NCBI GenBank assembly: GCA_043816785.1
Contig: JBDRHP010000085.1
Coordinates: forward strand, 1 to 22,438
Length of the DNA: 22,438 nucleotides
Direction of reading: 5' to 3'
From: Candidatus Margulisiibacteriota bacterium
Lineage (GTDB): Bacteria > Margulisbacteria > WOR-1 > O2-12-FULL-45-9
Made by a program: the position numbers and the translations under genes. Positions 379 to 22,438 of this stretch are shown piece after piece (position 1 is the stretch's first letter; each line of letters begins with the position of its first letter). The notes beneath the pieces were generated by a model that saw only the letters and a program-made list of their open reading frames with translations, was not told the DNA's origin and searched no databases.

Positions 379-3282
379 ATGCCAGTAGCATGCAGAACAC
401 ATTTAAGAAGGTTTTCTCAACAAGCTGCGGGAAATGTTGTCCAGCTTGGTACTTACTTTAGAGGCCCACATGCCTTAGCCAACGCAGCAGTAGACTTTAG
501 AAACTGTTCTCCGCAAGATGTCGGCCGCTTTATTGGCGCAGTCCGTCATCAAGGTCCTTTACAAGATAATGTTATTGGCCTTTTTAATAATGGAACTGTT
601 CCCATTGCAACAACTTCCCCCCAACCCAGTCTTGCTCAACTTAGAATAGCAGCTTATAGAAAAGCAAAGGATTGCTACTATTCCTCTGACTTCTCAGAAC
701 ACTATTTTGACTTCTGCATCAGGGAAAAAATAAATACAGGCAGAAGCTGCAAGATGAATCTTACTGAAGAAGAACTCTATAGAGCCATACTGGAGATCAA
801 CGCAAATAAATTAAAATACTTAGCTGGAGATGAACTTCTTGATTGTGTCTTAAAATTCAAGGCGCAGGAAAGAATCATTCAAGAAAAAGCCTTACGAGGC
901 CAGTTCATTTTCTTCGGCAATCAAGAAGATTTGACCCTTTCAGCCAGGCTATTAACATACGCCTTACAGAGCCAACACGTGTCACACGAAAGAAAACTAA
1001 CCCTAGCACTAATGATCTTGAGCAGCCACCTTTTTAGGAATAATAAGGGCACTAGTTCTTTTTCCGACCGTTTTGCTTATCCAAAAGATCTTAACCAAGA
1101 TCATTTAATTCCTGTACTAAATAAGGAATTAAAAAGAAAAGGAGCAAACCCGATTGGCTCAAGACTAACCAAGCCCTCGGAGATAAAACATCGTTATCAG
1201 AAAAACCTGAGAGCTGCTGAAATTGCTCGATTAGAAGAAGAAGCCAGACAAGCTGAAATGGCTAGAAGAAGACCTAAACGGACAGAATTTGTTAGTCTCC
1301 TTCGTTCACAGGAAGCGAAATTAATAGAAGAAGCTCGGCTGGCTAAAGAAGTACAAAGGGCAGCTGAAGCTGCGTTTGAAGCGTGGTTTGAAGATGCTCG
1401 ACAAAATCATAATGTTTACCTGGAATTTTGCCAGGATACCTCAATCAATTTAGAGCGTCGCTTATATCTTCACGCTGAATGGGAACAAAGAAAAGACCTT
1501 GCCAGAGAAGAAATGGTTACAAATGCCAGCGTGAGGCAAAGGCTCTATCAAGAAATTGCTTCGGGAGATGTATACCTTAGCGATAGTGAGGCTGGTGATT
1601 TATTACAAACTTCATGGTATTGGAAATTATTTACTTGTCGGCAAACACCAGCAATTTTACAATTACGAATGGATCTGATTGATGTTATGGCTCTGGGATG
1701 GCATTCTCTAGCTGAGCTCCAAAACCATTGGAACATAACTGTTAGAAAGAATTTTCTGGCAACCTCCTTGGATTATATTAAGCATCTACGCACATTCAGC
1801 AATGGTTTTGGCAAACCCTGGCAAGAACATTATTGGATTTCACCCCGCATGTGTGCGGTTGCCGCATTAATTGAAGCAGGCAAAAATATACCAGCGGATA
1901 CAATTATTCGTGAGGCAGCAGGCGATAGCGAAAAAACTGAGTCTGTCCTGTATGCTTTTAGCCGAGTCAAGGGTACACCTTCACGTGGCTGGGTTGCCCA
2001 ACTCCTATGCATTCCTTTTGAAGATTTTCCAACTGATATTTTAAGAACATATTTAGAGAGAATTGATCAACTTCCGCCAGGAGCCTTACGCAAACAATTG
2101 CGCTTACAAGTTCAGTTTGCCCTACCCCTGGGAGTAATGTCTGGTTTTTCTCCAACAGTTTTAAAAAACGAGGATTCCTTTAGAGCAAGGCTGACGGAAT
2201 TTCGAAAGATTGCAAGAGAATTTGATCTTGGACCAATTCAAAAAGTAATTGAGGTTATAGATTTTGCTCTTAGCTTTCGAGTTGGCCAATCCGCCGAGAC
2301 CAAAACCTTAATGGGGGTGCGCAACCACCTTTTAGCTTGGGTCAGTGCCTTTACCGCAGAAAACCCGGTATTTGCCAGAAGAACAAATTATCAAGCTTTC
2401 CTTGAAAATGCCTTATTAGTTTTGCTACATAGAGTTTTTATTCAAGTAGGAAGAAACATTGCAAAAAGGATTGAAAAAATTTCTGGTTATGAAGTTTGGA
2501 TAGATGTAGACAATGATCTTAGCGGCTCATGGGGACAAATAACTCTAACCCACTTGAGATCGTTTTTATCTGGAAATAAACCAAACAACCAACCTGAGGC
2601 AACAGCCGAAACAGCAAGCGCTATGACAGCTTCTTTTTCAAGAATGAGTATGGTAATGCGTCAAGAACTAAGATTAAGCATGTCATTACAAACTTTAGAT
2701 ACTATGCTCCTTGAAGGATCATATAGTCTTGAAGAATTCATAAACCGTTTATTAACCCTAAATGCCCTCGTTCCGCATGAGTTGGCCCACCAAGTTGTCG
2801 AATATGGCATTCTTACGCCCCGGGTTAGAGGAAGTGGCAGGGTCCCTGGCAGATTGAAATTCTTTGATAAGCAAGACGTATCAGGCCAGTACAAGGAAGT
2901 TATTACAGATCGCGTTGGACTTGCTCTGGCTAGACGCTACGGAGTGTTTTCCCCTGCTCGATCTCGCAAAGAAAGAACCAATGAATATGCTCATTCACAA
3001 TATCACATCGCTAAAATGATTTTTGAAATGAAAATATCGGGCAGACATGATTGCAACAATGTTTACCTTTTAAGGGTAGCAGCTCATTGTGCCTATCTAG
3101 CTGCTGAAATCGAAGATGAATCTCTCCGTAATAAGCTACAAACACTTTCACTTCAAATATTGGGGTATTTTGCCAAACAAGACAACAAAGTAAAAGCTGA
3201 GGAAGCAAATAGAATATTTGATTATTTCGTGAAGGTTTTTATCCAGACAAAAGTCTCTCGACTAAAAAGAGAAAAATCCTAA
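379..3282 (+). CDS. Large orphan protein (967 aa) with a central coiled coil and a C-terminal zincin-like metallopeptidase motif
   Basis: Long ORF. E/A/R-rich helical segment at about aa 270-340. HELAH (HExxH) at nt 2776-2790, followed about 40 aa later by KEVITDRVG, resembling the third-ligand helix of gluzincin/M48 peptidases. Confidence 0.6.
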   Translation: MPVACRTHLRRFSQQAAGNVVQLGTYFRGPHALANAAVDFRNCSPQDVGRFIGAVRHQGPLQDNVIGLFNNGTVPIATTSPQPSLAQLRIAAYRKAKDCYYSSDFSEHYFDFCIREKINTGRSCKMNLTEEELYRAILEINANKLKYLAGDELLDCVLKFKAQERIIQEKALRGQFIFFGNQEDLTLSARLLTYALQSQHVSHERKLTLALMILSSHLFRNNKGTSSFSDRFAYPKDLNQDHLIPVLNKELKRKGANPIGSRLTKPSEIKHRYQKNLRAAEIARLEEEARQAEMARRRPKRTEFVSLLRSQEAKLIEEARLAKEVQRAAEAAFEAWFEDARQNHNVYLEFCQDTSINLERRLYLHAEWEQRKDLAREEMVTNASVRQRLYQEIASGDVYLSDSEAGDLLQTSWYWKLFTCRQTPAILQLRMDLIDVMALGWHSLAELQNHWNITVRKNFLATSLDYIKHLRTFSNGFGKPWQEHYWISPRMCAVAALIEAGKNIPADTIIREAAGDSEKTESVLYAFSRVKGTPSRGWVAQLLCIPFEDFPTDILRTYLERIDQLPPGALRKQLRLQVQFALPLGVMSGFSPTVLKNEDSFRARLTEFRKIAREFDLGPIQKVIEVIDFALSFRVGQSAETKTLMGVRNHLLAWVSAFTAENPVFARRTNYQAFLENALLVLLHRVFIQVGRNIAKRIEKISGYEVWIDVDNDLSGSWGQITLTHLRSFLSGNKPNNQPEATAETASAMTASFSRMSMVMRQELRLSMSLQTLDTMLLEGSYSLEEFINRLLTLNALVPHELAHQVVEYGILTPRVRGSGRVPGRLKFFDKQDVSGQYKEVITDRVGLALARRYGVFSPARSRKERTNEYAHSQYHIAKMIFEMKISGRHDCNNVYLLRVAAHCAYLAAEIEDESLRNKLQTLSLQILGYFAKQDNKVKAEEANRIFDYFVKVFIQTKVSRLKREKS

Positions 3283-3330
3283 TCAATCCTTACGCCACCT
3301 CGCCCCATACTGCGTATCTTCGATACTATT
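3283..3330 (-). pseudogene. Relic duplicate of the cysS 3' end
   Basis: Minus strand reads NSIEDTQYGARWRKD* with TGA at 3283-3285. 3295-3330 matches 4918-4953 of cysS at 29/36 nt. Confidence 0.8.
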
Positions 3331-3342
3331 TTCCCGTATAGC

Positions 3343-3370
3343 TGAAATTAGTGCTGATTTTTAACGATAT
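3343..3370 (+). promoter_or_regulatory. Alternative-sigma (sigma-28-like) promoter motif, copy 1
   Basis: TGAAATT-N16-GATAT with -10 octamer AACGATAT. Followed by SD GAGGTG (3395-3400) and ATG at 3408. Confidence 0.55.
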
Positions 3371-3407
3371 ATATATGTTAGCAAATCTATAAATGAGGTG
3401 ACCTAAA

Positions 3408-4949
3408 ATGGGAAGTCCAATATGTGCAACAGGAGCAGCAAAAAGATTTCAATTTCCAATAATGGCATTGCAACGGCCTATAAAGCTAAAAACCGAGAAC
3501 GCTTGCTACCAGCTTCAAATGCTCAAGATAACAGGCTTGCAAGCCAAACAATTAATGTCAGCACCAATGCAAATACGAAGAGCATTGGATAAATTTTCTA
3601 TCGGCATAGAACGTATTAGTGGGGCTAGAATAAGACTTTTTCCAAATAGACATGAAAGTCTGCGCAAAATGACTGACTTTTTCCAAGATTTTAGAATTGA
3701 TCTAGCTCCAGGCGAAGTTACTCTGCTTGAGATCGCCGAGGCCATTGACATAAAACCTCTTGATTTATTGACTTTTGTTGAAGAGGGAAATCTTGACGAT
3801 TTGATTGCCAGAACTGTTGTTTTATCGCCAAGAAAAAACTCAGACCTTATCACGGGAATCTTTCAACAGAGTGACATTCAAGAAATCAGTAGAAGGATTT
3901 CTTTAACAACACCACAACAACTTCAAGAATTATCACTTAGAGGCATGCAACTACTTGCTCAAAGGACACAAATCCCTACAATACTCGAGCAGGAAATTGC
4001 AGGATATACCGGAGCAGCCCCTATGTCAGCTGCGCTCGAACATTTAAATCTTGGTCTATTTATCGAGGCAATGCAGCGTGTCGCGTCAATCCAGGCAGAA
4101 ACTGTAACCACATTAGAAAGTCTGCAACAATCTTTTCAAGAAGCTTTAGGTTTTCCAAAAGAATTTCGCCCTATGAAATTCATTGCTTGGCCTGCATATT
4201 TGGGCACACATCGAATAAGAGAGGTTGCCAACCTGGTTGGGACCACAGAAGTTGAAACCTCTGAAGGAATAATGGCAAAGGCTAAGCTTCATAAACTATT
4301 AATAGCCTATGCCCAACAAGAGGGTGATTCCGCCTCACTCGCCTTAGTCCATTATTTATTGGATAAAGCTGATCAGGGAAAAATCACCAATCCAGATGGC
4401 CTATTAGCAGAATTCCAAGCTCTTTCGTGTCTACTACCCCTCCCCGGCTCACAAGGTGAAGATTTTGTGCCTGCCCCTCCTGCAACCACTTGGAGAAAAG
4501 AATATATTGGGAGCATAGCCGCTCATGGAGTACAACTAAAGCAGGCCTGGTTATCAGGGAACCCTGAAGCAAAAGGTTTCGAAACCTTCTTAGCAGTTTG
4601 GCCCAGAGACTATGTTAGAGGAGGAAAACCATTATCAAGCCTGATGATGGAATATCACCCAGGCGTTTTTGTAAGAATGCTGGAAGAAGTTGCACAAGCC
4701 AAAACAGATAGCGATATCAGTCAATTAAAATTTGACCATTTTAGGATAAAAAAGAGTGATGGGTTTGGATCAATTGGTCCTTTCGAGTTTGTCCTTGATA
4801 AAATCCTGTCCTATCTATTTTTTGTTGTAGATTTACCATGCTCAGCTTCAACTGAACTTGATTTTGTAGAATTACACGCGAGGTTAACTACTTTAGCTCA
4901 AAGTTTTGAGCAGAAGTCCGCCTCGTCCCATACGGCGTATCCTCAATAG
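3408..4949 (+). CDS. Orphan hypothetical protein (513 aa)
   Basis: Long ORF with a good SD and no recognisable motif. Its 3' end overlaps the convergent cysS 3' end by 62 nt. Confidence 0.75.
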   Translation: MGSPICATGAAKRFQFPIMALQRPIKLKTENACYQLQMLKITGLQAKQLMSAPMQIRRALDKFSIGIERISGARIRLFPNRHESLRKMTDFFQDFRIDLAPGEVTLLEIAEAIDIKPLDLLTFVEEGNLDDLIARTVVLSPRKNSDLITGIFQQSDIQEISRRISLTTPQQLQELSLRGMQLLAQRTQIPTILEQEIAGYTGAAPMSAALEHLNLGLFIEAMQRVASIQAETVTTLESLQQSFQEALGFPKEFRPMKFIAWPAYLGTHRIREVANLVGTTEVETSEGIMAKAKLHKLLIAYAQQEGDSASLALVHYLLDKADQGKITNPDGLLAEFQALSCLLPLPGSQGEDFVPAPPATTWRKEYIGSIAAHGVQLKQAWLSGNPEAKGFETFLAVWPRDYVRGGKPLSSLMMEYHPGVFVRMLEEVAQAKTDSDISQLKFDHFRIKKSDGFGSIGPFEFVLDKILSYLFFVVDLPCSASTELDFVELHARLTTLAQSFEQKSASSHTAYPQ

Positions 4950-6393: not shown

Positions 6394-7917
6394 ATGAAAA
6401 AAAATATACGATTGAACTATGGGATATCGATTCTCTGTCTTTTGGGATTGGCCTGGTTAATTGTCGGCTGCGGACAAACCACTACCCCTGCCCCAACGCC
6501 CACCCCAACCCCGAGCGGCAGCGTAACGATTAGCGGCACTTTAAACACAGGCAACATCGCCAGCACTGCCATTCATTCAGCCGGAGTCAGAGCCCAGGCT
6601 ACAGTTCTGGCAGCGCTGCCGGATTATTATGTGGTCGCTGTTTCCAGCGATACTGGCCAGGTCTATTTCCCTGCCAGCGAAACAGACGCTTCCGGCAATT
6701 TTAGCATACCTAATTTACCTAACGATGAAAGCTTCTTTCTCGAGGTCATTGACTCCAATTATCAATTAGCTGCGCCTGTTGCCCTGGGTTCGACTGATGG
6801 AAAAGTCGTCATGGCTTTAGATCCAGGCACAACCAGCACCCTTGACCTGGACCAGATTGTCCTGGACACTTCTAAAAATACTGCTGCTCCAGCTTCAGCT
6901 CCGTCCGGCTATTATGATCTGACTGCCAGCGTTGAGGCCAAAGCCGGAGAAGCCCTGGTTCCCAAAGGAGCAGGCAATTTTGGCAAAGGCTCTGCGCAGC
7001 AATACAGCGGCAGCTACGACCCTGATCAGATTGACGGCGACAAGGACGGTCTGCCCAATTTCTTTGACGCGGACAACAATGGCGACCTGGTCGTTGATGA
7101 GCTGGACGGCCTCTACACCCGCGAAGCCTTTATCCTCGGCGCCATAGCCGACTTTTTCCCCTATGCTTTTGTTAACCTAAAAATTGATTATGACCGGCGC
7201 AACACATTTAATACTGGCACCGACGCTTACAGCGACATGACCATTGCCATCGGCGTAACTTCCAACATAGGCAGAGGCGCGCTGTCAACCAAGACCATTT
7301 CCAGCGTAAAGGTTATTGAAGGCCCCAGCTGGCTGTCAAAAGCTACTGTAATCAGCGGCGGACTGTGGAGCGCGACCAGCTATGCCGTACCCGCACAAGG
7401 GCTCGATGTCTTTGAAGTCCAGGTCAACGGTTTAAAGCCGCTAACAGATGTTAACGCCGGGGACGCCTTGAAGTTCCAGGTAAACTACACAGATGGGACC
7501 AACGATGAGGCGATCAAAATGCTCAATTTTATTTTTACTGATATTCCGCGCGTCACCGCCTATAAGATCGGCAGCGGCAGCTGGATAGACGCCACGGCTT
7601 TCCCAACCGCGGGTCCGCTGAGTTCTGCCTCAACTTCTGAGGTGTCCTTGCGCTGGACCAGGCCTAAGGACGAAACCGGCGTGGAAATCAATGGCGGCCG
7701 GTACACCTGGGAGTACAACGCCGTGGGTGGCGGCGCCCGCGAAGTGGAGATTATCAGCAAGGATACTTCAACCGCTCCGTCCCTTGAAGGAACTTATCTA
7801 TTGGGCTCACTAAGTGACGCTGATTTTTCCGCAGCAGATTTTATGATTGGCGTTTGCATCCGCAGCATGGCTAATGATAACGCGGCAGAAAATGTCAGGT
7901 TCACCAAAGGCTGGTAA
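6394..7917 (+). CDS. Surface lipoprotein with a Pro/Thr linker, beta-rich domains and an acidic Ca-binding motif
   Basis: Signal peptide with lipobox LIVG-C25. PAPTPTPTPS tether. DGDKDGLPNFFDADNNGDLVVDELD resembles thrombospondin type-3 (DxDxDG) Ca-binding repeats. Confidence 0.8.
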   Translation: MKKNIRLNYGISILCLLGLAWLIVGCGQTTTPAPTPTPTPSGSVTISGTLNTGNIASTAIHSAGVRAQATVLAALPDYYVVAVSSDTGQVYFPASETDASGNFSIPNLPNDESFFLEVIDSNYQLAAPVALGSTDGKVVMALDPGTTSTLDLDQIVLDTSKNTAAPASAPSGYYDLTASVEAKAGEALVPKGAGNFGKGSAQQYSGSYDPDQIDGDKDGLPNFFDADNNGDLVVDELDGLYTREAFILGAIADFFPYAFVNLKIDYDRRNTFNTGTDAYSDMTIAIGVTSNIGRGALSTKTISSVKVIEGPSWLSKATVISGGLWSATSYAVPAQGLDVFEVQVNGLKPLTDVNAGDALKFQVNYTDGTNDEAIKMLNFIFTDIPRVTAYKIGSGSWIDATAFPTAGPLSSASTSEVSLRWTRPKDETGVEINGGRYTWEYNAVGGGAREVEIISKDTSTAPSLEGTYLLGSLSDADFSAADFMIGVCIRSMANDNAAENVRFTKGW

Positions 7918-10959: not shown

Positions 10960-11544
10960 ATGACAAATCTTGTTAAAATCGGAGGCTGTTACAGCGGCCT
11001 GCTTGGCGGCCCCAGCAGCCGGTACAGGCGGATAGCTATCGCTACCCCACCCGCTCTTGACCGATTCCACAGCAACATGCGCTTGCAAACCGCTGTAATG
11101 AATATTGAGAACGTCGTTATACTAAATTCAACCACCATTGCTGAGGCTGGTTTGGCCAAAGAAGATTTTATCGGCGGCCGAGGTTTTCTCAGTGTCGGAC
11201 TACGGCTGATTGAAGCGTCAAGCGATGAAAAGCAGATATATGAGGAAGCGAAAAAACTCCTGCGCAGCCAGCAAAGAGGCATTCATCGCAGAATATTTCT
11301 GCGACGGGAAGGGATCGGCGCATCCAGTGAAATAGATGACTTATCGCCCAATCTTTATGCGGCGCTGCTGGCTGAGTTAGGAGATCGATTTCAGGACACT
11401 TCTTTCAAGAGTGTTGTTTCCCTAAGCGTGGAAGATATACCTTTTGATGTGATTGAAAGAACTGAAGGGGGAAAAATAATTAGATTCTCACGTTCATTAT
11501 TGGAAAAAGCCCCGTTCTGGGCGCATATTGAAGAGGAAGATTAG
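10960..11544 (+). CDS. Orphan hypothetical protein (194 aa)
   Basis: ORF with an SD that fills the gap. Its stop codon overlaps the stop of the convergent gene (11541-11544). Confidence 0.7.
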   Translation: MTNLVKIGGCYSGLLGGPSSRYRRIAIATPPALDRFHSNMRLQTAVMNIENVVILNSTTIAEAGLAKEDFIGGRGFLSVGLRLIEASSDEKQIYEEAKKLLRSQQRGIHRRIFLRREGIGASSEIDDLSPNLYAALLAELGDRFQDTSFKSVVSLSVEDIPFDVIERTEGGKIIRFSRSLLEKAPFWAHIEEED

Positions 11545-12777: not shown

Positions 12778-14457
12778 ATGACAAGAATCACTCCATCAAG
12801 CAGCAGTCCTTTTACCAGCCGCTGGAAATCAATGGCCGCGGCTAGGCCACACCTTGACGCTTATACAGCTCAGCGTTTAAAAAGACTTCTCAACGATCCC
12901 TTATTCAGGGCCTCCAGCCTTAGACTGGCTGAAACCGAGCGTGTTGCCCGCGGTAAATATTTACCTGACCTAGAATTACTCATCGGCGATAAACTCTCCA
13001 TGATAGAGGGCATGTCAAAGGCAGAACTCATAAAGCTCTATGTCGAAAAAATGTCACCGGTCGTTCAGGAAGTCTATGAAGAGGTCCTGGACGGCTCAAG
13101 AAAAACTTTTCCAGATAGGTTCTGGTCCGGCAGACAAGGTCAGCTCAATATGATCATCTGCTTCCGCTATCTTCTGGAACAAAAATTAGGCTTTCAGATG
13201 CAGCGCTCTCCCCAGATCATTGACTCACGATTTTTTAGACAAAACCAGGGAGAATTTTTGGTTAGCGAAGTTGGTAAAGAGGATTGGACAGCTTTTTGCG
13301 CAAAATATAAACTTGGCGGAGGCTTAAACTTAACTTTCGCCAATTCATTCTCTCAGCTGATACGCACATCCTATCCCTGGGCTTTTAATCTGAACAGCAA
13401 GGAAGGCAGCCACTTGCATCCAGATGACTTTCGCACTAATGACACCTGGCAAGGCAGCAAAGGCAGAAAACTAGCCGGACGCATGGCTGATCACCGCTTC
13501 CGTCGGCATCTTGGGTTGACCATGGATGAAAAGACCAAAACTTTTGATCCCCGCCTGCTCCGGGAGAACCAGGCTGAACTTTTGGCCTCTCTGGGCTACA
13601 CCTGCTGGCGGGATGTTTTTTATGCAATAGGACTGGGCAGTATTTTAGCTGCTTTCCCTGAATTTCATCATAAAGTTGGTCATGTTTTAAAGTGGCGTTA
13701 TCCCTGGGCTTTTGACTGGAGCAAACCAGAAGGACAACATTTGCATGCTCATGATTTTGGTGATAAAGCGGTTTTTAAATCTGATCAGGAACTAAGAGCC
13801 GCCATCCTGCACGAAACAGACCAAGAAGGCTGGGAATTAAGGGACTTACCGGCCCGTCTAACCAGCCCCTGGTTGGCTAAGCACGGACTGGCTGACCAAA
13901 GGAGTTTCTCAAAGATCGAGGTTATGCAGCGTGCTTTTGCCCCGGAATTCGCCCGGGGATTTTTCACTGAAGCTGATTTCAGGAACCAAAATTACACCAG
14001 CTGGCTCAGACCTTCAGCTCTGAGAACGATTAAGCCCACAATGGCAGGTTCAATGCCTTATGGCGTGATCCAGAGCGGCAAAACAGCTTTTTATTTTTCC
14101 GCTGATCTGGTCGGTTTTGTCGCTAGAATAGAATCAAGAGATCATGGCACTATTTATAAGGTTGTGACAACTTTGCACGAAGAAGGTAAGCTGGGTCGAA
14201 AATTACGGCCGGTCAAAGCATTTGATCTACCCCAGGAAGAAACCAGCTATTGGCGGCCAACGTTAACTGACTACAACAGAGAGGAGCACCCCATTATTCC
14301 CTCTCGCCTAAGGAACGAACTAATAACTTTAGGTGTTGCTCCGCAATCACTTTCGCTGGAATTGCAAAAGCAATTGCTTGCCCATCTTGCTGCCCGAGGC
14401 GACCGCAGTTTACATGAATTTCTAAGGCGCTGCGGCCTGCTACAACATTTTGTTTGA
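12778..14457 (+). CDS. Repeat protein (559 aa) with DUF4046-like repeats
   Basis: VYEEVLDGSRKTFPDRFW...FRYLLEQKLG resembles DUF4046 (family recognised from memory). Internal repeats YPWAFNLNSKEGSHLHPDDF and YPWAFDWSKPEGQHLHAHDF are 109 aa apart. Confidence 0.65.
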   Translation: MTRITPSSSSPFTSRWKSMAAARPHLDAYTAQRLKRLLNDPLFRASSLRLAETERVARGKYLPDLELLIGDKLSMIEGMSKAELIKLYVEKMSPVVQEVYEEVLDGSRKTFPDRFWSGRQGQLNMIICFRYLLEQKLGFQMQRSPQIIDSRFFRQNQGEFLVSEVGKEDWTAFCAKYKLGGGLNLTFANSFSQLIRTSYPWAFNLNSKEGSHLHPDDFRTNDTWQGSKGRKLAGRMADHRFRRHLGLTMDEKTKTFDPRLLRENQAELLASLGYTCWRDVFYAIGLGSILAAFPEFHHKVGHVLKWRYPWAFDWSKPEGQHLHAHDFGDKAVFKSDQELRAAILHETDQEGWELRDLPARLTSPWLAKHGLADQRSFSKIEVMQRAFAPEFARGFFTEADFRNQNYTSWLRPSALRTIKPTMAGSMPYGVIQSGKTAFYFSADLVGFVARIESRDHGTIYKVVTTLHEEGKLGRKLRPVKAFDLPQEETSYWRPTLTDYNREEHPIIPSRLRNELITLGVAPQSLSLELQKQLLAHLAARGDRSLHEFLRRCGLLQHFV

Positions 14458-14475
14458 TCTCTTCCCGTCCCGAAA

Positions 14476-14486
14476 TGTGCTATAAT
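14476..14486 (+). promoter_or_regulatory. Extended -10 promoter, leaderless transcript
   Basis: TGTGcTATAAT followed after 6 nt by ATG 14493. Confidence 0.65.
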
Positions 14487-14492
14487 ATCGGC

Positions 14493-15125
14493 ATGTTAAA
14501 AAGAATTGTCGCTTCATTATTGATCTCTACTCTCCTGCCCCTGGCCCTGTTCGCGGATGAAGCCTCTGACCAGGAATACATCAAAAAATTAACCTACCAG
14601 CGTAATAGATTGGAACTGGTTACCAAACAAAGAGAAATCGATGAAAGACGCAGTTACAGCTACACGGACATTGATTCCTACACTTACAGTTATGAAGCCT
14701 ATGCCCACACTTCAACCGATATTTCAACTCAAACATTAGACCGTTCAGAAAAAAAAGAAGTTACTGACTGGTATATTTATAAAGGTGGCCTCCGCCAGAT
14801 CAGCGACCCAGAATTCCTGGAACTGGTTGGCGCTAAAACCAAACTAGCGTTGGTCCTAAAAGAAGAAGAGCAAAAAGCCCGGCTAAGGGGTTTTGGCAAT
14901 ATTTTGATCGGGACTGGCCTGGCAGTAATGCTGGGCGGCGCGGCTTTTTCCGCGCCTGAAGGCACCACAACTGCCGGCGCATTAGGCATGACCGCTGGTT
15001 TTTTTCTTAATGCTTTTAATCTATCACCCCAGCATTATATTGAACCAGACTTTGCCCAGGAAAAGATCGACGAATACAACATCAATCTGAAGAGAAATCT
15101 GGGGCTGCCGTTAAGCAATAACTAA
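14493..15125 (+). CDS. Exported/membrane hypothetical protein
   Basis: Signal peptide MLKRIVASLLISTLLPLALFA and two Gly-rich hydrophobic segments near the C-terminus. Start moved to ATG 14493. Confidence 0.75.
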   Translation: MLKRIVASLLISTLLPLALFADEASDQEYIKKLTYQRNRLELVTKQREIDERRSYSYTDIDSYTYSYEAYAHTSTDISTQTLDRSEKKEVTDWYIYKGGLRQISDPEFLELVGAKTKLALVLKEEEQKARLRGFGNILIGTGLAVMLGGAAFSAPEGTTTAGALGMTAGFFLNAFNLSPQHYIEPDFAQEKIDEYNINLKRNLGLPLSNN

Positions 15126-16168: not shown

Positions 16169-16293
16169 GGAAACCGGAGACTGAACGTCTCGGTTTCCAA
16201 TTTTCTTGATTAAACTCATGGAAACCGCGAAGCACCTCGACTTCGCTCGGTGCTGCCCTGAGCCAGTCGAAGGGTTTATTCGCAGGTTTCCAT
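16169..16293. repeat. Inverted doublet of REP-like hairpins, the second carrying a 42-bp insert
   Basis: GGAAACC-G-GAGAC-TGAAC-GTCTC-GGTTTCC (16169-16198). An opposite-orientation copy at 16218-16293 has 16233-16274 inserted in its loop. Confidence 0.9.
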
Positions 16294-16307
16294 CGTCTCG
16301 AATTTAA

Positions 16308-16332
16308 AATTATATCATAGTGTGATATAATT
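16308..16332. promoter_or_regulatory. Back-to-back extended -10 elements for asd and gmhA (perfect 10-bp inverted repeat)
   Basis: AATTATATCA-tagtg-TGATATAATT gives TGaTATAAT on both strands. Confidence 0.65.
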
Positions 16333-16340
16333 ACCAAGAT

Positions 16341-16913
16341 ATGCAGGACAGGATCAAAGCAGAGATCAAAGAAAGCATCGACATAAAAAATCAGGTTGGC
16401 AAAAAGCTCACGCCCCAGATCGAGCAAGCCGCTAAATTAATGGTCCAGGCCTTAAAGAACGGCAACAAGGTCCTGTTCTTTGGCAATGGCGGCTCAGCAG
16501 CTGACGCCCAACACCTTGCTGGTGAGCTGATTGGCCGTTATTTAAAAGATAGACGCGCTCTGCCGGCAATTGCTTTGACTACTGACACTTCGATCCTGAC
16601 CTGCCTGTCAAATGACTTTGGCTTTGAAACTGTCTTTGCCAGACAGATCGAAGGTTTAGCTAAATCTGGGGACATTGCTTTTGGCCTTTCCACTTCAGGC
16701 AATTCCAAGAACGTCCTGATCGGTCTTGAAAAAGCCAAAGAACTTAAATGCAAAACTATCGGCTTACTGGGCGGAGACGGCGGCAGGATCGCGGATGTTT
16801 GTGACCTGGCCATCACTATCCCCTCCAATTCCACACCCCGCATCCAGGAAAGCCACATCACCATTGGCCATATTCTTTGTGGTCTAATAGAACAGGAACT
16901 CTTTCCCCAGTGA
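16341..16913 (+). CDS. gmhA: D-sedoheptulose-7-phosphate isomerase
   Basis: GNGGSAADAQH, LPAIALTTD, NDFG, STSGNS and TPRIQESH. Confidence 0.97.
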   Translation: MQDRIKAEIKESIDIKNQVGKKLTPQIEQAAKLMVQALKNGNKVLFFGNGGSAADAQHLAGELIGRYLKDRRALPAIALTTDTSILTCLSNDFGFETVFARQIEGLAKSGDIAFGLSTSGNSKNVLIGLEKAKELKCKTIGLLGGDGGRIADVCDLAITIPSNSTPRIQESHITIGHILCGLIEQELFPQ

Positions 16914-17470
16914 ACAAGGCAGTTTTTCTTGACCGCGACGGAACTATCGTAGAAGACGTGGGCTATTTAAATTCCCCAAAGCAATTGCAATTTATACCCG
17001 GCTCGATCGAAGCCATTAAAAAACTTAATCAAGCTGGTTACAAAGTCGTGGTTATAACCAATCAGGCCGGCGTTGCCCGCGGGCTGATCACTGAAGACAT
17101 GCTACAGACCATAGACAAAACCCTTCATCGATTTATACTTAGCGGCGGCGCGCACTTGGATGGCGTTTATTACTGCCCCCACCACCCTGAACATGGGGTC
17201 TATCCTTACAAACAAGCTTGCGAATGCCGCAAGCCCCACCCTGGATTGATCAAAAGAGCGCGCAGGGATCTCAACATAGATCTTTCCCAAGCCTTTATGA
17301 TTGGCGACAAGGTTTCTGACATTGAAGCAGGCAAACGTGCCGGCACCAAGACCATCTTTGTTACTACCGGCCGCGGACCTGAGGAAAAACCAAAACTCAA
17401 GGAAAAACCCGACCATATCGCAGAAAATCTTAACCAAGCAGTAGACTGGCTGCTCAATAATACTGTATAA
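16910..17470 (+). CDS. gmhB: D-glycero-D-manno-heptose-1,7-bisphosphate phosphatase
   Basis: AVFLDRDGT HAD motif, TNQAG, YYCPHHP...CECRKP and MIGDK. GTG start overlaps the gmhA TGA. Confidence 0.95.
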   Translation: MNKAVFLDRDGTIVEDVGYLNSPKQLQFIPGSIEAIKKLNQAGYKVVVITNQAGVARGLITEDMLQTIDKTLHRFILSGGAHLDGVYYCPHHPEHGVYPYKQACECRKPHPGLIKRARRDLNIDLSQAFMIGDKVSDIEAGKRAGTKTIFVTTGRGPEEKPKLKEKPDHIAENLNQAVDWLLNNTV

Positions 17471-17479
17471 TTGTCCATC

Positions 17480-18931
17480 ATGGACAATCTTAGACAGGTC
17501 ATCCCCAAACTAAAAGGCAAAAAGATCCTGATCTTTGGCGACCTGATGCTGGATGAGCATATCTGGAGCCGGGTCAGCCGCATTTCCCCGGAAGCCCCCG
17601 TCCCCATCGCTGATGTTGCCAGGATAAGCCATGTGCCTGGCGGCTGCGGCAACGTTGCTGCTAATGTTTCGGCTTTAGGAGGCATTCCCTTCCTGGTTGG
17701 CATGATCGGCAAGGACAGCTCAGGCGACAAACTTCGCAAAGCACTGTCCCAGGCCAAGATCTCTAGCAAACATCTTATTGTTGATAACAAGCGGCCGACC
17801 ATTCTAAAATCCAGGATCATTGCCGGCTCCCAACAAGTTGTGCGCGTTGACCGGGAAGACCGCACGGTCCTCTCCCCCAAACTGGTCAAGACAGTCAGCC
17901 AGCGCCTAAAAATAATTATCCCAAAAATAGACGCAATTATAATCTCCGACTATGGCAAAGGCATGGTTATGGAAAAAACTGCCCAAGCAGCTATCAGCCT
18001 GGCACGAAAATATAAAAAACCCGTGGCCGTTGACCCTAAAGGTCACGACTATACCAAATATCGCGGCGCCACGGTCATCACGCCCAACCTGCAAGAAGCC
18101 GCGATCGCTTCCAGGCAGATCATTATCAGCGAAAAAAGCCTGATCAAGGCCGGCAAAATCCTGCGAAAATTATCCAGGACCGAGTATGTTCTGATCACTC
18201 GCGGCCGCGATGGCATGTCCTTGTTTAGCCAAGAAGCGGTTACTTATATTCCGGCAATTCCCCGCGAGGTCTTTGATATTACTGGCGCTGGCGATACAGT
18301 TATTGCCACCCTCAGTTTAGCAGTTGCTGCCGGCGCGCGGATGAAAACAGCCGCTCTCCTGGCCAACTCAGCCGCCGCAGTGGTCGTCGGCAAGATCAGC
18401 ACTGCCCCCTGCTTCCGCGAAGAGCTGGAAGAAGCCATTGAAGGGCACGAACCGATCGCCAGAAAGATTAAACTGCGTCAAGAGCTCAAAGCGATCGCGC
18501 AGAATTTAAAGAACGAGGATGCCAAAGTTGTTTTTACCAACGGCTGTTTTGACATTCTCCATCTAGGCCATGTCAGATACCTGCGTCAGGCAAAAAATCT
18601 CGGCGATGTGCTTATTGTGGGATTAAACAGCGATGACTCTGTCAGCGCGTTAAAAGGCACGGGCCGCCCTTACGTCTCAGAGCTGGAGCGGGCAGAGATC
18701 CTGGCTTCTCTTGAATTTGTGGATTATGTTACGATTTTTTCTGAAACACGACCGGATAATCTGATCAAGATAATCAAACCAGACATTCATGTTAAAGGCG
18801 GGGACTATAAGATCAGCCAATTGCCGGAAAAAGAACTGGTTGAAAGACTGGGCGGCAAAGTCGTGGTTATTCCGTCGATCAAAGGACGATCAACAACTAA
18901 TATCGTAGAAAGGATATTATCTAGAAAATGA
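17480..18931 (+). CDS. hldE: Bifunctional heptose-7-phosphate kinase / heptose-1-phosphate adenylyltransferase
   Basis: GDLMLD, RISPEAPVP, SDYGKG, DITGAGDT (PfkB domain), plus VFTNGCFDILHLGH and VKGGDY (cytidylyltransferase-like domain). ATG 17480 is preferred as start. Confidence 0.96.
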   Translation: MDNLRQVIPKLKGKKILIFGDLMLDEHIWSRVSRISPEAPVPIADVARISHVPGGCGNVAANVSALGGIPFLVGMIGKDSSGDKLRKALSQAKISSKHLIVDNKRPTILKSRIIAGSQQVVRVDREDRTVLSPKLVKTVSQRLKIIIPKIDAIIISDYGKGMVMEKTAQAAISLARKYKKPVAVDPKGHDYTKYRGATVITPNLQEAAIASRQIIISEKSLIKAGKILRKLSRTEYVLITRGRDGMSLFSQEAVTYIPAIPREVFDITGAGDTVIATLSLAVAAGARMKTAALLANSAAAVVVGKISTAPCFREELEEAIEGHEPIARKIKLRQELKAIAQNLKNEDAKVVFTNGCFDILHLGHVRYLRQAKNLGDVLIVGLNSDDSVSALKGTGRPYVSELERAEILASLEFVDYVTIFSETRPDNLIKIIKPDIHVKGGDYKISQLPEKELVERLGGKVVVIPSIKGRSTTNIVERILSRK

Positions 18932-19662
18932 AAAACAAACTATTCATGGAACCTGAGACTAAACCCTTCGGCAAGCTCAGGGCAGCACCGAGCGAAGTCG
19001 AGGTGCGTCTCGGTTCCATAAGAACAATAAACTCAAGGAACCGCGAAGTTCATTCGCAGGTTCCTTGGAAAATACTATTGTTGTTAATCATCTCATTGTT
19101 AACTGTCAATATTGCTCACGGCTGGCGCATCACCACCGAGTTAGAGCAGGAGCTCGAACAAAAAAAGGCCGCGGTAGATGGAAAACCCAATGACCCGGCA
19201 GCCCGCTTTGATCTGGCAGTCACTCAAGCCTACACCAACCATCTCATTGACGGCATGTCCAGCATAAGGAAGATCCATAAACTTGACCCTGATTTCAAGA
19301 AAAAAGCCTTGGGCGACTACATCAAAAAAGTTACTGCTAAGCCAAATGATTGGCGGCTTCGTTTCCGTCTGGCCTTTGCTTATTATTTCAATGACCAGAA
19401 ACAGAACGCCATCCATGAGTTCGAAAATGTCTTAATGATCGACCCTTACAATGTCTGGGCTTATGGGTATCTCGCCCTGCTCTATGGTGAGATTGATAAA
19501 GTTGATAAAGCCATGGAGATCACCAAGCAGGGGCTGGCAATCGACAGCAACGTGGCTGCCCTGCATTTGTTGTTATCCGAAGGGTATTACAAAAAGGGAG
19601 ATAGCTGGAAAGGCTTTTTGGAAAGGATGGAAGCCGTGCGCCTGAAAGCCCTGGGATATTAG
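18928..19662 (+). CDS. Exported TPR-repeat protein with a repeat-derived in-frame N-terminal insertion
   Basis: ATGA coupling to hldE. TPR-like units (ARFDLAV.., LRFRLAFAYY.., AYGYLALLY.., LHLLLSEGYY..). Hydrophobic signal core KILLLLIISLLTVNIAHG. Confidence 0.85.
   Translation: MKNKLFMEPETKPFGKLRAAPSEVEVRLGSIRTINSRNREVHSQVPWKILLLLIISLLTVNIAHGWRITTELEQELEQKKAAVDGKPNDPAARFDLAVTQAYTNHLIDGMSSIRKIHKLDPDFKKKALGDYIKKVTAKPNDWRLRFRLAFAYYFNDQKQNAIHEFENVLMIDPYNVWAYGYLALLYGEIDKVDKAMEITKQGLAIDSNVAALHLLLSEGYYKKGDSWKGFLERMEAVRLKALGY
18946..19067. repeat. Inverted doublet of REP-like hairpins, the first carrying a 42-bp insert
   Basis: ATGGAACC-T-GAGAC-TAAA[18964-19005]C-GTCTC-GGTTCCAT, plus an empty opposite-orientation copy at 19034-19067. 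Confidence 0.9.
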
Positions 19663-22238: not shown

Positions 22239-22352
22239 CCCCTCACCCTGAGTAATCCTTTTATTGATTGTTTTCGATTTCATGATCCCTCTCCCAAAGG
22301 AGGGTGTCCAATAACACTCATGAAACCTGCGACTAAACGTCGCGGTTTCATG
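22239..22352. repeat. Intergenic repeat cluster: split CCCCTCACCCT...CCCTCTCCC element plus an empty REP-like hairpin
   Basis: CCCCTCACCCT (22239-22249), CCCTCTCCCAAAGGAGGG (22287-22304) and CATGAAACC-T-GCGAC-TAAAC-GTCGC-GGTTTCATG (22319-22352). Confidence 0.8.
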
Positions 22353-22365
22353 GACAGAGTCTTTC

Positions 22366-22438
22366 CTATGCCATTTGTTGTGCTAATTTGGGGCTTATGA
22401 GCCATTCTTGTTTTCCTTTTAGGTGCTTTTGGATCTTG
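22366..22438 (-). CDS. Possible 3' end of a convergent gene (truncated by window edge)
   Basis: A minus-strand frame reads ..KIQKHLKGKQEWLISPKLAQQMA* with TAG at 22366-22368, just before the hairpin. Too short to verify. Confidence 0.3.
   Translation of the reverse strand, partial: KIQKHLKGKQEWLISPKLAQQMA

Follow-up and report, generated by a model that had tools for sequence, protein, structure and literature searches.

How did a 42-bp unit come to lie in the loops of two hairpins on contig JBDRHP010000085.1, a stretch of 22,438 nucleotides from a Candidatus Margulisiibacteriota bacterium (GCA_043816785.1)? This whole stretch, hereafter the window, is contig C85 of genome G000 (1.53 Mb, 87% complete); other G-numbers denote genomes of relatives, and C-numbers denote contigs of G000 unless another genome is named. 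The reading that we favour, by a modest degree, is that the unit (the 42-mer) enters purine^C bonds (the caret marks the bond) by repeated insertion of single-stranded DNA (ssDNA), carried out in trans by a nuclease of the UPF0213-type GIY-YIG group. An earlier note on this DNA had described five hairpins of one family (the host hairpins) and two 42-bp inserts, and all were recovered where it had placed them: the two inserts are identical at 39 of 42 positions, each comes directly after TAAA and in one orientation relative to its host, and both doublet spacers end with TAAACTCA. The features concerned are as follows.

16169-16198, + strand: empty host hairpin (outer stem GGAAACC, inner stem GAGAC, loop TGAAC), first of an inverted doublet between the divergent asd and gmhA genes
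16218-16293, - strand: filled host hairpin (inner stem GCGAA, loop TAAA^C)
16233-16274, - strand: 42-bp unit, variant B
18928-19662, + strand: gene for an exported TPR protein, its ATG overlapping the hldE stop codon
18946-19019, + strand: filled host hairpin (inner stem GAGAC, loop TAAA^C)
18964-19005, + strand: 42-bp unit, variant A
18964-18982, - strand: first half of this unit, a 19-nt hairpin of the stem-GAGC-N2-4-GTCGA-stem family
18986-19005, + strand: second half of this unit, a 20-nt hairpin of the same stem-GAGC-N2-4-GTCGA-stem family
19034-19067, - strand: empty host hairpin (inner stem GCGAA, loop TGAAC), partner of the filled copy at 18946-19019
22319-22352, + strand: empty host hairpin inside the end of a multi-copy insertion sequence (IS)-like element (about 22304 to the contig end)

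All five hairpins are thus present, but the last is no independent locus, since it belongs to the end of the IS-like element, which recurs at 6 contig ends. An assembly artefact is unlikely, because contigs from public runs span the insert junctions with zero differences (record 7 of run X1 up to 18975; record 18 of run X4, 16251-16419), and run X1 independently contains a nested double form of the 42-mer. A contig of run X3, 86% identical, reaches 18975 inside the insert and is too thin for use.

The empty host hairpin folds at z of about -8 relative to shuffled sequences, and 123 raw copies were found in the genome (120 in the corrected census plus 3 in a free-split search), so that the family cannot be ascribed to chance. 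Twelve of the raw copies represent the two ends of the six-copy IS-like element; after these were collapsed, 113 distinct hosts were left, including 90 empty ones, 19 with the 42-mer, 1 with a 24-mer and 3 with a 21-mer. Close host pairs are inverted (+/-) in 42 of 45 cases, and the lack of any doubly filled doublet among the 45 is within chance (P=0.09). The outer stems are GGAACC, GGAAACC, GGAGCC and GGAAGCC, with no 5' GT[AG]G tetranucleotide foot, and the outer flanks form locus-specific palindromes, of which the mean extension is 2.2 nt against 0.62 nt after shuffling. The spacers within doublets frequently repeat the outer flanks in inverted form, as also holds, by eye, for doublets of the insert family, a hint that doublets may form through fold-back copying.

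The 42-mer is composed of two 19-20-nt hairpins (stem-GAGC-N2-4-GTCGA-stem) arranged head to head, the 5' ends of the halves meeting at a 3-nt CAG/CTG linker, and no CGTC/TGTC tag precedes the hairpin. The GAGC/GTCGA hairpin core is present in 36 of 41 genomes and occurs singly and in looser doublets, and we infer that the 42-mer is a fused head-to-head doublet of this class-wide 19-20-nt hairpin resembling the repetitive extragenic palindrome (REP). The termini of the 42-mer, CCCT.. and ..GGTG, do not pair as inverted repeats, so that it falls outside the miniature inverted-repeat transposable elements as defined by terminal inverted repeats plus target-site duplication. Five of its six frames are open. 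No Rfam match was obtained over the elements at E<=1, and a scan limited to the exact pattern of the 42-mer gave 1 match in genome contigs and 0 in metagenome and viral contigs. In G031, three tandem 24-nt units of an insert-family hairpin were noted (L303, G031:C1:1274466-1274529).

Where the 42-mer sits is highly constrained. G000 contains 21 copies, every one in a hairpin loop (19 in hosts, 2 in hairpins of its own family); the pattern that the earlier note had named as refuting its proposal, a unit mostly at random sites outside palindromes, is therefore represented by 0 of 21 copies. Among the host-borne copies, 14/19 are of variant A and 5/19 of variant B, both variants crossing host types, and 19/19 lie at TRAA^C in a single orientation, a result that holds when the split point is left free. 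All 19 copies at TRAA^C are in host hairpins, though the genome has 5,659 TRAAC sites. The free-split test covers G000 and 230 loci of relatives, mostly picked with a fixed-site pattern; a class-wide search with free split was discarded since controls matched equally often. On C88, one 42-mer lies within the loop of the first half of another (84 nt in total, with compensatory stem changes), and at C11:45301 the 42-mer takes part in a triple nest, in the loop of an own-family hairpin. Three more copies were identified in G004 (1 in a host, 2 in own-family hairpins) and four in G025, all in own-family hairpins, three of which share their context and may be non-independent. For these three genomes together, 8 of 28 copies occupy hairpins with no relation to the host, where the bonds are AAG^C, GAG^C, GTG^C, TAG^C and AGG^C, and every site is a purine^C bond at the 3' side of the loop; homology-driven copying from a host cannot give these eight. 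Many junctions show 1-2-nt microhomology (C or GC), while inserts beginning with T permit only the TRAA^C split, so that the target duplication of at most 1 nt (C) envisaged earlier is not needed.

Fixed ends, a fixed bond and orientation, two unrelated target families, empty orthologous sites and lack of duplication characterize the 42-mer, in support of the earlier note's tiny, non-autonomous element with site- and orientation-specific insertion. The 42-mer very probably moves as a unit, and it is likely to be a very small gene-less mobile element. Precise deletion from an ancestral filled form, for which the microhomology at many junctions could be quoted, is as good as refuted by how the two forms are distributed: 32 of 41 genomes have the empty host core and 3 of 146 the 42-mer, which makes gain more parsimonious than loss, and neither the approximately 14 different inserts found at the one bond nor the nested double and triple forms agree with deletion.

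Orthologous sites were compared by mapping the flanks of 34 host-bearing regions of G011 and 6 of G004, plus the leuS and miaB loci; 15 were aligned, of which two (L257 and L258) were non-orthologous at the hairpin and were left out. The site is filled in G000 and carries an empty hairpin in the relative at leuS, miaB, C102:5868 (G011) and C69:19003 (G004), and at tsaD, filled in G000, a degenerate remnant of the empty hairpin was detected in G003. The reverse state was found in the pcrA-like gene, where a 24-mer occupies the same bond in G011 while the hairpin of G000 is empty. Among the aligned sites, none was seen at which both genomes share the 42-mer. For the loci of the window no empty ortholog was found: a host is present at the TPR site in 0 of 29 relatives, and a degenerate host precedes gmhA in 1 of 29, with a different upstream gene. 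The two window copies, taken earlier for independent insertions, need not be independent, since arms change in place, an empty ortholog is lacking and clonal spread is possible.

Which enzyme could move such a unit? The insert-type core was found upstream of GIY-YIG genes of the type encoded on C77 at 13 of 30 loci, compared with 3 of the 143 windows taken as controls, and the 13 include all three genomes with the 42-mer; two more distant GIY-YIG homologs have, by eye, insert-type hairpins on both sides. The nearest solved relatives of the C77 protein are the UPF0213 proteins 1zg2 and 1ywl, which suggests a subfamily other than the Ssn clade cd10448. A model is provided by the Ssn GIY-YIG nucleases, which cut ssDNA beside their NTS/SRM hairpins (Chenal et al. 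2025, PMC11893778); in the part of that source available to us, SRM mobility is put forward as a hypothesis only. By analogy, nicks made by an ssDNA nuclease next to the donor hairpins and in target loops that are exposed would be followed by sealing of the single-stranded piece into the loop through host ligation or repair, and some filled hairpins would later be copied to more sites along with their host, which is itself likely spread by the IS200-like Y1 enzyme considered below. We put forward the UPF0213-type GIY-YIG enzyme as the mover on this analogy, as a tentative candidate. The Ssn systems share with it a single-domain GIY-YIG gene beside its own hairpin family; they differ in that the insert has no CGTC tag, the linked gene is UPF0213-like, and the Ssn-like gene of this genome, on C33, has other, NTS-like repeats. 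Several of the repeats that flank this gene (L007, G000:C33:3032-3253) carry inserts in their own loops. Four further small GIY-YIG genes (L008-L011, on C55, C105, C2 and C24 of G000) lie, by eye, between a palindrome-studded tRNA-like stub and an intact tRNA-like copy.

A number of findings weigh against this reading. Inner stems and loops often differ between G000 and G011 or G004 at the same sites, both arms in concert and at empty pairs too, so that host hairpins are altered where they stand, whether through conversion or through template switching at quasi-palindromes, and subtype counts overstate the number of independent events. Filled copies cover fewer host types than do random draws (10 versus 13.6, P=0.019). 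No skip joint, that is, no empty allele, was found for either window insert in the four public runs, of which contigs only were searched. The 4-bp stems of the insert family show covariation (full pairing in 11 of 23 distinct flank pairs versus 0.9 after shuffling, and 0 of 30 for a control core), in support of the two imperfect hairpins that the earlier note had drawn, but a lone 42-mer folds no better than shuffled sequences (z of 0.05 and 0.81) with standard DNA parameters, which leave out sheared G-A pairs. As to the enzyme, the insert-type core was downstream of 0 of 30 C77-type genes and is missing at 17 of the 30 homologs, and nothing matching the C77 protein turned up in G036 or G011, two genomes whose filled hosts are of other types. 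Related loci among those of C77 type are non-independent, and a tRNA precedes many of the loci, so that the association may reflect no more than a shared landing pad next to tRNAs. GIY-YIG nucleases hydrolyse DNA, and we know of no rejoining by them.

The concerted differences and the shortage of filled types, together with the outer-flank palindromes as a sign of local templated rewriting, are what would be expected if one or two primary insertions had been followed by spread of the filled hairpin through gene conversion, cassette exchange or doublet transposition, the arms being rewritten later. G036 shows exactly this pattern, 22 of its 22 filled copies belonging to one class that holds 2 of its 13 empties, as in clonal spread of filled hairpins. 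For G000 we nevertheless regard this course as unlikely. It leaves unexplained the 8 copies with identical ends in unrelated hairpins, as well as the many other insert types at the TRAA^C bond. The filled hosts of G000 comprise 10 outer/inner/loop types, or six inner-stem/loop classes when the single ACGAC joins GCGAC, with the junction-adjacent arms concordant in 19/19, and spread would require that both arms change together at least five times, over a loop of 47 nt and with the insert kept. The partners of filled copies stay heterotypic (18/19 pairs versus 26/26), and the outer flanks of filled copies have at most 15 of 24 bases in common. In the counts of an earlier census, since superseded, no preference of the 42-mer for any host stem, loop or outer type was seen. 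G000 is far more mixed than G036, consistent with several primary insertions plus some copying; that several primary insertions into the host took place in this lineage is probable, their number being uncertain and at least a few.

The bond of the host loop is shared with other inserts. A gapped host pattern matched 18 of 146 genomes and gave 48 inserts at TRAA^C in 14 genomes other than G000, after 3 of 51 rows were dropped (a chance match in G016, tandem hosts in G017 and G018); as the pattern fixes the site, it indicates shared use of the bond and not exclusivity. By eye there are about 14 insert types in these relatives, 19-42 nt long (19-36 nt when the 42-mer is set aside) and some mutually related, and 12 of 15 insert-type lengths are multiples of three (P=3e-4 if independent, which the types are not fully). 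The idea that the unit targets another repeat family accordingly stands as to its nesting in the host and needs widening, since own-family hairpins are entered too and the bond is used by about 14 insert types. A general pathway, run by UPF0213-type GIY-YIG proteins, in which many unrelated 19-42-nt hairpins jump into purine^C loop bonds with no duplication, is conceivable and rather doubtful. As a separate case, a 20-21-nt perfect palindrome (read as LPAGRQ) was found in 37 copies in varied contexts, for instance at C72:14444, C73:1875 and C104:11684 of G000, and enters hosts at four different bonds across G000 and G011.

That one bond accepts many unrelated inserts could point instead to an enzyme of the host. 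Y1 genes on C10 and C60 are flanked by host-type hairpins, and 14 of 30 loci of Y1 homologs have a host hairpin within 300 nt, 6 of them on both sides. The enzyme does not score as a canonical RAYT, the type that the earlier note had associated with such doublets: a 115-aa piece scored 70.5 with the IS200 model (cut-off 55) and 47.7 with the RAYT model (cut-off 80), the C10 protein has a class 1 Y---Q motif and not Y---NP, and its nearest structures are IS200/IS605 TnpA. The host is thus a REP-like family tied to an IS200-like Y1 gene, acting like REP and yet not canonical. Such a Y1 (HUH) enzyme, nicking the host loop and joining foreign single-stranded hairpins to it, would account for the fixed orientation and the absence of duplication. 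HUH enzymes both cut and rejoin, and the 5'-phosphotyrosine of TnpA-REP is described as resolvable in principle by any ssDNA with a 3'-OH (PMC3479197); by eye, the 3' ends of inserts (CAAG, CAGG, CGGG, CGAG, TAAA and GGTG) resemble the target TRAA, as in the geometry of IS200/IS605. This route is still less likely than spread from one or two insertions. The 42-mer enters hairpins that are not host-like, and the 20-21-nt palindrome enters hosts at other bonds, so the bond follows the donor class as well. The guide rule of Escherichia coli, by which guide bases 3-4 pair with the two bases preceding the cut, did not predict the bond when worked through by hand for a GGAA/GGAG foot, and G019, G007 and G022, which have filled hosts, gave no match to the C10 protein. 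On the Y1 genes themselves we note that the ORF at G000:C10:13933-14427 runs, at its 3' end, across a filled host hairpin and that the C60 gene has an internal TAG. Three more Y1 genes, on C16, C49 and C99 of G000 (L003, L004 and L005), are nearer to RAYT, each with its own flanking GTAG-like REP family.

An RNA route, with reverse transcriptase copying the transcript of a hairpin into a loop that is nicked or single-stranded, seems improbable. The genome does have a reverse transcriptase gene (L211/L231, G000:C20:66648-67286) with, by eye, a group II intron-like upstream region, and filled hosts favour the sense strand (10 versus 4, against 33 versus 48 for empty ones; P=0.043, post hoc). Against it, both strands are used, there is no Rfam match, no intron-end motif was seen at the junctions, and a head-to-head doublet offers one equivalent hairpin on either strand. 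Neither the GIY-YIG nor the Y1 candidate co-occurs perfectly with filled hosts. On the Ssn analogy and the linkage, we would place the UPF0213-type GIY-YIG protein first, the host Y1 second, because it cuts and rejoins yet should not recognise non-host targets, and the reverse transcriptase third. Two other candidates were rejected: an IS110 gene on C11, of which two flanks were compared, showed no visible likeness to the 42-mer, and the tyrosine recombinases are two of XerC/D size only, an integron-like G^TT crossover having been dropped since other targets read G^CA, G^CC and G^CT.

The insertions reach into coding sequence. The second doublet of the window is not intergenic: it lies with its 42-mer (14 codons) in frame within the 5' end of the TPR gene, in the signal-peptide N-region, and the hairpins are absent from the TPR orthologs in 29 of 29 relatives. 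By a crude ORF caller, 48 of 108 hosts are within ORFs, some of these being 5'-end overcalls. Among 19 ORFs checked, filled copies were identified inside PolA, LeuS, TsaD and MiaB, and empty hosts inside IleS, GltB, MetH, a PcrA-like helicase, HemW and MutS, as well as MiaA, DinB, LarB, MoeA, CopA and others. The PolA insertion is absent in 4 of 4 orthologs shown, and in polA a second and a third element are nested in frame inside the first (host plus 84 nt). In-frame insertion into a conserved gene and absence from orthologs, the combination known from Rickettsia palindromic elements (RPEs), was found for polA, leuS, tsaD, miaB and the TPR gene. A length of 14 codons would allow the 42-mer to survive in essential genes.

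Tiny hairpins nested in other repeats have precedents, namely the small dispersed repeats (SDRs), REPs in palindromes and in-frame RPEs. The SDRs of Nostoc-group cyanobacteria, reportedly described by Elhai et al. in 2008, are said to be structured, gene-less repeats of about 21-27 nt that nest in their own copies. The 42-mer resembles them in being small, gene-less and structured, in precise insertion without duplication and in nesting in its own copies; it differs in its 42 nt, though its halves (19-20) and the sibling inserts (24 and 27) fit, and in being a fused inverted doublet within a Y1-linked REP-like loop, in another phylum, with candidate enzymes in the same genome. No demonstrated enzyme is known to us for SDRs, CGTC-type REPs or RPEs, as far as the literature searched goes. 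Precise insertion at a fixed bond in HIP1 has been described for SDR5 (PMC4390886, PMC2884548). REP dimers of the GTAG/CGTC type were found within palindromes of at least 41 bp in three species (Di Nocera et al. 2013, PMC3733652), and intragenically in repair, replication and tRNA-related genes (PMC3733652), as polA, mutS, leuS, ileS, miaA, miaB and tsaD carry intragenic copies here. Their empty target palindromes were not found in 2 of 3 cases (PMC3733652), whereas here empty and filled forms coexist and differ at orthologous sites; moreover, host and insert are both without a GTAG or CGTC tag. REPINs are reported to insert into or beside other REPINs (PMC3116915, PMC3479197, PMC6006769). The REP/REPIN-RAYT systems share a high-copy inverted-doublet hairpin flanking a Y1 gene, and differ in the host foot (here GGAA, GAAA, GGAG or GAAG), the Y---Q enzyme and an insert unrelated in sequence to its host. 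IS1397, IS621, ISPsy8 and ISPpu9/10 enter REPs at a single fixed position, in some cases leaving no direct repeats (PMC1525189), but are kilobase-sized and encode transposases, whereas the 42-mer has 42 bp and no gene. RPEs, as cited in PMC3733652, are likewise in-frame palindromic insertions in housekeeping proteins, differing from the polA case with its second and third element nested in frame inside the first. No description of the 42-mer was found in the literature covered, and matching sequences may be held in subscription journals, in the 2008 study and in supplements, which lie outside that coverage.

The movement of repeats 20-40 bases long is a long-standing question. One genome here combines a defined donor (42 nt) and target bond with orthologous alleles in both states, empty and filled, and with two small enzymes as candidates, and for that reason the mobility of repeats below 50 bp becomes directly testable. 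It also shows how the nesting of repeats can lengthen PolA, LeuS, TsaD and MiaB by 14-50 residues. If the general pathway mentioned above exists, it would mobilise transposable elements of a size below that of any whose enzyme is known, which live on REPs as parasites and can add peptides to essential proteins, and UPF0213-type GIY-YIG proteins, so far of unknown function, would gain a role.

Five ORFs of the window, 194-967 aa long, had no Pfam match (379-4949, 6394-7917, 10960-11544 and 14454-15125). At its end, the six-copy IS-like element (window 22290-22438), which we take to be IS1182-like, carries an ORF beginning MKFKDYNQ; DUF772 was looked for in it and not found, and its middle was not found in the assembly. 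The copies have the shared end GTGTCCAATAAC, with a host hairpin just within each end, and the other ends lie on contigs C42, C58, C60, C61 and C79 and on C8, C41, C60, C62, C87 and C88. The target of the element is each time a third palindrome family (CCCTCTCCC..GGAGG).

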